From assembly GCF_003334815.1 (NCBI RefSeq), contig NZ_QOWO01000119.1: a stretch of 724 nucleotides of DNA. One strand, written 5' to 3'. The position numbers were made by a program, and so were the translations under genes. The notes under the pieces are model-generated. The model saw only the letters and a program-made list of their open reading frames with translations, was not told the origin of the DNA and ran no database searches. Each line of letters opens with the position of its first letter. The stretch's first letter is position 1. Below are positions 1-724 of the stretch, in pieces. The DNA is from Escherichia coli. Its GTDB lineage: Bacteria > Pseudomonadota > Gammaproteobacteria > Enterobacterales > Enterobacteriaceae.

Positions 1-724
1 GTAAGTCACTGTGTGGATTATCATAACGGTAGCGGGTGATATCGCCGTCAGGGGCAGTTTCCTGAATCAGACGGCCCAATTCATCATATTCCCGGCGCAA
101 TTCCAGCCCGTCAGGCCCGGTGGCTGACGTTAACTGGTTGTGGTGGTTATAGTAAAACGCCGATGCCCTGCCATCCGGCGTGGTTATGCGCGTGATGAGG
201 CCCGTCACCACATCCGGGCTGTACTCTGTTGTCCTGCCTGCGGCATCCGTCTGTGCCCTGAGCCTGCCCACGGCGTCAAACTGACTCTGCGTGACGCTGC
301 CGTCCGCGTGTTCCTTTTTCACCACCCGCTTCAGCCCGGCTTCGCCCTGCGTGTGCAGCACTTCACGGCGGTCCAGGCTGTCGGTGATGGTGATGCGGTC
401 CTTCTCATACTGATACGTGTAGCTTAAGCCTGCCGGGTTTAGCTGTTCTGTCACCCGCCCGTCGCTGTCGTAACGGTAACGGATTTCCGGCCGGCCCGTG
501 TGACGGTGCGCCACCATCCGGCCCCGGTATTTATCATCGTAAGTAAAGCTGCGCACCTGTTTGCCACTACGGTCATACACCACCGCCAGTTCGCCGCGTG
601 GCGTCCAGCCATAGCGCACCAGCGGCGCGGCAGGTAAATTCTCCGGGTATTCCGGGTCGTGCGTCAGCCACACGGCAGACAGACGGATGCCGTTGTCCCG
701 GCCATATTCGGTGTAACCCGGCAG
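1..724 (-). CDS. Rhs-family / YD-repeat polymorphic-toxin core protein, internal fragment (partial at both ends; enterobacterial RhsA-E-like, paralog not assignable)
   Basis: Reverse-complement frame (codons at + 724-722 ... 4-2; + position 1 is the first base of the next codon) is open for all 241 codons with no stop. Translation: LPGYTEYGRDNGIRLSAVWLTHDPEYPENLPAAPLVRYGWTPRGELAVVYDRSGKQVRSFTYDDKYRGRMVAHRHTGRPEIRYRYDSDGRVTEQLNPAGLSYTYQYEKDRITITDSLDRREVLHTQGEAGLKRVVKKEHADGSVTQSQFDAVGRLRAQTDAAGRTTEYSPDVVTGLITRITTPDGRASAFYYNHHNQLTSATGPDGLELRREYDELGRLIQETAPDGDITRYRYDNPHSDL. It contains recurring YD-repeat signatures (xRYxYDxxGRxxxE/Q) at roughly regular intervals and is rich in R/Y/D/G/T, as expected for Rhs cores. 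Third codon positions are G/C-biased (about 21 of the first 30 codons). The family assignment rests on motif recognition and recollection of E. coli Rhs core sequence, not on a database search. Confidence 0.92.
   Translation of the reverse strand, partial: MPGYTEYGRDNGIRLSAVWLTHDPEYPENLPAAPLVRYGWTPRGELAVVYDRSGKQVRSFTYDDKYRGRMVAHRHTGRPEIRYRYDSDGRVTEQLNPAGLSYTYQYEKDRITITDSLDRREVLHTQGEAGLKRVVKKEHADGSVTQSQFDAVGRLRAQTDAAGRTTEYSPDVVTGLITRITTPDGRASAFYYNHHNQLTSATGPDGLELRREYDELGRLIQETAPDGDITRYRYDNPHSDL

Follow-up and report, generated by a model that had tools for sequence, protein, structure and literature searches.

Coding content of the window

The window, i.e., the whole 724-nt stretch of DNA analysed here, is spanned on its minus strand by an internal fragment of an Rhs core ORF of the rhsA/rhsB/rhsC type (2-724), recognised by its open frame, its match to the RHS_core family and its identity with known rhs genes at 723 of 724 positions. 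Neither the start codon nor the stop codon of this ORF lies inside the window. Six-frame translation gave no stop in the 241 codons read from 724 to 2, against 6, 8, 10, 14 and 15 stops in the remaining five frames. The window is 60.4% GC; calculated from base composition, the chance that a 241-codon frame stays open is about 3e-4; among 60,000 frames of shuffled sequence, 13 were open over their full length. The GC content at the three codon positions of the minus-strand frame (0.635, 0.469 and 0.705) is, as expected, that of a real coding frame in a GC-rich gene.

Residues 1-241 of the translation match positions 285-525 of the 1261 positions of the NCBIfam model NF041261 (RHS_core) without a break (E = 2.7e-138, 462.8 bits). 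The whole-protein cut-off of this model, 2000 bits, is out of reach for any fragment, and the full-length genes that differ from the window by one mismatch score 2644-2659 bits. The model TIGR01643 (YD_repeat_2x) reaches 73.3 bits, against a cut-off of 15.8, over four stretches (the best at residues 133-168), and Pfam PF05593 (RHS_repeat) matches the translation five times at E ≤ 0.001. Overlapping YD (RHS) repeats run over residues 133-235 (window 20-328, minus strand; both repeat models), with PF05593 units at 133-165, 149-186, 174-206 and 213-235 (E from 2e-07 to 1e-03), and one more unit covers residues 85-116 (window 377-472, minus strand; PF05593, E = 7.8e-06). YD or YE dipeptides stand at residues 50, 62, 85, 106, 213 and 234 of the translation.

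The first-pass annotation had proposed a stop-free, 241-codon minus-strand frame that crosses the window and encodes YD repeats. The absence of stops in this frame, against 6-15 in the others, and the strong matches of the 241-aa translation to RHS_core, TIGR01643 and five PF05593 units agree with both parts of the proposal. It had also remarked that the frame was missing from the program-made list of ORFs, which is correct: the frame runs off both ends of the window and is absent from the list because it has no stop within it. This holds a lesson for annotation, since ORF tracks that require a stop within the window overlook genes spanning short windows.

What the list does contain are plus-strand ORFs of 38-95 aa, and one of these (e.g., the 95-aa ORF at 140-427) could in principle be the real feature, with the minus-strand frame being incidental. 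We regard this as extremely improbable: rhs is the sole annotation under the match in the RefSeq records inspected, the minus-strand translation has the RHS_core match given above, Rfam matches neither strand, and antisense ORFs about 95 aa long are to be expected in coding DNA of 60% GC. The RHS_core match and the rhs annotation decide the question, and the plus-strand ORFs (at most 95 aa) were dismissed as antisense artefacts. Searches for other types of elements gave no result: there was no Rfam match to an RNA element at E ≤ 1 on either strand of the window, and the PADLOC models of anti-phage defence matched neither the window translation nor full-length RhsA.

The window is an internal piece of a multi-copy gene

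We compared the window with 5,426 complete E. coli genomes using megablast. Of these, 3,885 (approximately 72%) contain it, at 12,129 places in total and with a median of three; only two of the places are not chromosomal. The top matches are 99.9% identical and annotated as rhsA, rhsB or rhsC; the exact 724-mer occurs in none of the 5,426 genomes. Identity is 723/724 nt with rhsA of K-12, with rhsB of a K-12-like strain and with rhsC of strain 4/2-1. The 241-aa peptide is identical to residues 277-517 of the products of all three: RhsA (1377 aa), RhsB (1411 aa) and RhsC (1397 aa). The window thus corresponds to codons 277-517 of the familiar toxin-shell gene rhsA/rhsB/rhsC, which E. coli has in multiple copies, and is an unremarkable internal segment of it. 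The feature was already known, and the window holds nothing new: descriptions of the E. coli rhs core go back to the 1980s, and this textbook segment is annotated in thousands of genomes.

A plasmid origin was considered and rejected. Only ten plasmid-labelled records match the window, all at 98.6% identity or less, and several of them are megabase-sized or very small. A chromosomal origin is therefore favoured. Some very small records labelled as plasmids, 2-15 kb long and assigned to Klebsiella oxytoca, K. pneumoniae or E. coli, are mostly rhs core, 93-99% identical, and suggest unplaced repeat contigs under a wrong label rather than true plasmids.

Genetic organisation of the related loci

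The layout of the locus was read from fetched relatives that differ from the window by one mismatch (K-12 rhsA, K-12-like rhsB and rhsC of strain 4/2-1). In all three, the window falls within a same-strand ORF that runs without interruption for 1377-1411 aa. The start codon of rhs lies 828 nt to the right of the window (locus position 10552, the window ending at 9724). Some 2.2 kb left of the window, residues 1238-1247 form the PxxxxDPxGL motif, which reads PVTNTDPLGL in RhsA and PISNIDPLGL in RhsC. It coincides with the end of the Rhs_assc_core domain (TIGR03696, residues 1170-1247 of the full-length relatives). Within residues 1-1200 of RhsA, Pfam recognises DUF6531 (46-123), RHS repeats and PF03527 (RHS protein, 1143-1179).

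The motif demarcates the variable tip of Rhs proteins (PMC3150448), and the tips of RhsA and RhsC are unrelated sequences. At the rhsA locus, the tip of 130 aa is followed by yibA; beyond it, yibG and an Imm57 pseudogene accompany two orphan RHS-core fragments, in an array that extends to about 6 kb left of the window. At the rhsB locus, a tip of about 164 aa is followed by yhhH, a HEAT-repeat pseudogene and ISEc1. At the rhsC locus, a tip of 150 aa is followed by ybfB, an orphan fragment with ybfC and remnants of ISAs1. The GC content is 57-67% across the core, against 22-45% over most of the region of tips, immunity genes and orphans. This combination of a GC-rich core and an AT-richer tip region is classic for the composite Rhs elements. 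The C-terminal region of RhsA inhibits growth, preventing recovery from stationary phase, and is neutralised by yibA (PMC3150448).

This organisation is largely the one that had been anticipated from the window. The DPxGL motif, variable tip, immunity gene and orphan cassettes were expected to the left, and the N-terminus beyond position 724. All are so placed in the K-12-type relatives (the orphans at rhsA and rhsC), in whose extended sequence neither stops nor a gene boundary interrupt the ORF around the window. The window was said to be core only, which fits the data: it contains neither tip nor immunity gene, and novelty could sit only in the flanks. Extending the contig by 3-4 kb on the left and 1-2 kb on the right, as had been suggested, would take in the main gene together with its immunity gene, but not the whole rhsA orphan array.

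No support for a link with type VI secretion

The remaining expectation, a vgrG or PAAR context above position 724, did not find support. The upstream neighbours in the relatives are yibF-selAB (rhsA), nikR-nikABCDE (rhsB) and ybfA-kdpFABC (rhsC). There is no vgrG within 8 kb in the related rhsA, rhsB and rhsC loci, nor are genes of the T6SS or of EagR chaperones adjacent upstream at these loci. Pfam PAAR has no match in residues 1-1200 of RhsA, and the NF033420 model (T6SS_PAAR_dom) gives 16.7 bits in the nearest full-length genes, against a cut-off of 124, covering model positions 68-94 only. To our knowledge, K-12 lacks a T6SS. In EHEC, rhsA-D lie outside the vgrG islands, and the VgrG that translocates the rhsA/B/C clade, if any, has been called unclear (PMC7216683). 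With no adjacent vgrG, no full PAAR domain and an unclear VgrG partner in the literature, this clade lacks support for delivery by the T6SS.

The N-terminus of these proteins is nevertheless PAAR-like. RhsA, RhsB and RhsC start with MSGKPAARQGDMTQYGGSIVQGSAGVRIG (MSGKPAARQGD...), which includes a literal PAAR motif and resembles the last third of the PAAR domain. In K-12 RhsA, it makes up the first 29 residues or so (locus 10466-10552, minus strand), about 0.8 kb to the right of the window. This motif may be the vestige of a PAAR-Rhs ancestor.

Broken and rearranged rhs copies

The gene around the window is likely, although not guaranteed, to be intact, since the same sequence sits in broken rhs genes in some strains. 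Because the exact 724-mer is absent from the complete genomes, it is from relatives that we infer whether the gene is intact and which tip it has. The window could also come from a broken copy, i.e., a frameshifted, truncated or rearranged pseudogene, or a remnant of the core, to which tip and immunity gene would be functionally unattached. Such copies exist: the matching rhs of E. coli 11899A_LBHALD is annotated as frameshifted and incomplete and has a perfect 130-nt tandem duplication, and that of 2014C-3011 is a truncated rhsC that departs from the window leftward of position 85 or so. Yet the window shows no stop or frameshift over its 241 codons, its sole change relative to the intact K-12 genes is synonymous, and the fetched K-12-type genes have intact ORFs (1377-1411 aa). 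We thus find a broken source copy very unlikely.

In 11899A_LBHALD, the duplication (NZ_CP130447.1, 9266-9525, corresponding to window positions 266-395 or so) produces the frameshift. In the same strain, the rhsC locus continues from its kdp-ybfA side into a partial DUF6531/Rhs gene beside pdeA, a junction that suggests either an rhs-mediated rearrangement or an assembly problem. In E. coli O27:H7 B4103-1 (NZ_CP024245.1, 4655-10192), a gene with an rhsB-type tip, together with yhhH, occupies the rhsA locus, with yibF upstream; yibA and the rhsA orphan array have been kept downstream, and the allele carries C at the position equivalent to window 401. This locus is a natural case of C-terminal tip displacement or of inter-locus recombination. 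In E. coli 2014C-3011 (NZ_CP027591.1, 8037-10192), the rhsC gene is annotated as "missing C-terminus" and is followed by small RHS fragments. To the left of window position 85 or so, the gene no longer resembles the window, which places an internal deletion or a recombination junction at this point of the core.

A single synonymous difference at position 401

The one difference between the window and K-12-type rhsA, rhsB and rhsC is at position 401, where the plus strand has C for T. On the minus strand, this changes AAA to AAG in codon 108, both encoding Lys. The C allele is found, with 100% identity over window 361-441 (an 81-nt query), in nine complete E. coli genomes. The two of these genomes that were examined both differ from the window at many other sites and thus carry a more diverged allele of the core. 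The exact 120-nt pattern around C401 is absent from the collection of species-representative genomes, and it is present in one metagenome contig, at an rhsA-type locus with a yibF-sized ORF upstream, where there are ten differences across the window, so that this contig is not the source.

The window is thus a K-12-type core that has, at 401, either a single-base change or a short patch of conversion. C401 may be a patch of gene conversion, and not a new mutation, in which case it would measure at most about 200 nt, because differences from the B4103-1 allele flank it at about window 276 and 481. A more ambitious proposal is that the source copy carries an undescribed tip/immunity pair or orphan array, with C401 being the footprint of gene conversion between rhs paralogues. 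We judge this unlikely. If it were true, neither a novel tip or array nor a conversion at C401 would change the understanding of Rhs systems.

Which rhs locus does the window come from?

We aligned 2.85 kb of K-12 rhsA with the rhsB and rhsC copies of two related strains. The three copies are identical over approximately 1,168 nt, a block that includes the whole window and overhangs it by about 340 nt on the left and 100 nt on the right. Since rhsA, rhsB and rhsC are identical across the window, it is unassignable to any one locus or toxin tip. The wider implication is that a window within a near-identical multi-copy repeat allows no assignment to a locus, and that the variable parts can be reached only with reads spanning the 3.7-kb core.

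This degree of identity raises the question of whether the 724-nt contig is the collapse, or the consensus, of two or three rhs paralogues, in which case it would have no single set of flanks. The window lies inside the 1.17 kb or so common to the compared copies, a kind of identical stretch that short-read assemblers typically fail to resolve; it is also unusually short and without exact match among the complete genomes. Its ends (1 and 724), however, do not fall on the ends of the identical block, and the sequence itself shows no sign of chimerism. We consider a collapsed repeat improbable. It would in any case be compatible with the explanation of what the window encodes, an internal piece of the Rhs core.

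An inverted repeat in the core

The window contains a perfect inverted repeat of 14 nt (241-254 and 679-692; CGGCATCCGTCTGT and ACAGACGGATGCCG), with arms 424 nt apart. It is rarer than expected by chance, as only 2-5 of 2000 shuffles reach 14 nt. We considered it as a selected pairing element and rejected this in favour of coincidence. In a diverged allele, one arm has three differences and the other is unchanged, with no compensatory change. As the arms do not co-vary in this allele, there is no sign of selected pairing, and pairing of the arms is probably not under selection.

Discussion

The window is, with high probability, part of the GC-rich conserved core of an E. coli Rhs element of the rhsA/rhsB/rhsC clade. 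Its 241 or so residues would then form YD-repeat β-strands in the wall of the Rhs shell (or cage). By homology to Rhs proteins of solved structure, the full protein is expected to be a closed β-sheet container whose ends are sealed by an N-terminal plug (DUF6531, RhsA 46-123) and by the C-terminal Rhs-associated core domain. The variable C-terminal toxin would be enclosed within the container and cut off by autoproteolysis at the PxxxxDPxGL junction, and the small gene directly downstream would encode the cognate immunity protein. The window would thus account for about one-fifth of the container wall and, judging from homology, would include no determinant of catalysis or specificity. This scheme is consistent with structural work in which the Rhs core is a closed β-sheet container, with a plug on each end and a probably unfolded toxin inside that is freed by autoproteolysis at DPxG[LWF] (bioRxiv 10.1101/2024.02.26.582050).

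At the level of DNA, the window is part of a repeat of about 3.7 kb, present in around three copies per genome, that serves as a substrate for homologous recombination. The name rhs ("rearrangement hot spot") itself comes from recombination between rhsA and rhsB (PMC3150448). Homology between the multiple copies drives the rhs-mediated duplications, inversions and displacements of tips, of which the loci of B4103-1, 2014C-3011 and 11899A_LBHALD described above are examples.

The closest known systems are E. coli RhsA, RhsB and RhsC themselves (WP_000015300.1, WP_000015298.1 and the RhsC-type WP_062914703.1), which have the same peptide in the same strand and frame of a GC-rich core, and from whose K-12-type genes the window differs only by C401. 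Among solved structures, the nearest by sequence are Rhs cages: first Tse5 (8cp6, E = 1.3e-38), followed by 8h8a, 7q97, 8qjd and 7pq5. Tse5 of Pseudomonas aeruginosa (8cp6/9i9y), a pore-forming Rhs toxin, has a YD-repeat shell in which residues 189-422 correspond to window residues 10-238 (74.1 bits). The relationship is distant and gapped, and Tse5 is delivered by the T6SS, whereas E. coli rhsA/B/C are not linked to vgrG in the genomes inspected. The PAAR-linked T6SS Rhs effectors, with entries from Salmonella bongori (8qjd), Photorhabdus laumondii and Pseudomonas protegens (7pq5 and 7q97) and Vibrio (RhsP, 8h8a), belong by sequence to the same fold family of YD-repeat containers (E of about 1e-22) and follow the same logic of core, DPxGL and tip. 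They differ in having a complete N-terminal PAAR domain and vgrG clusters, whereas K-12-type RhsA/B/C have only the PAAR-like motif. Teneurins and the BC components of Tc toxins also have YD repeats (teneurin-like 9pt5 and 9ifo, E of about 1e-10); here only the repeat fold is common, and organism, context and payload all differ.
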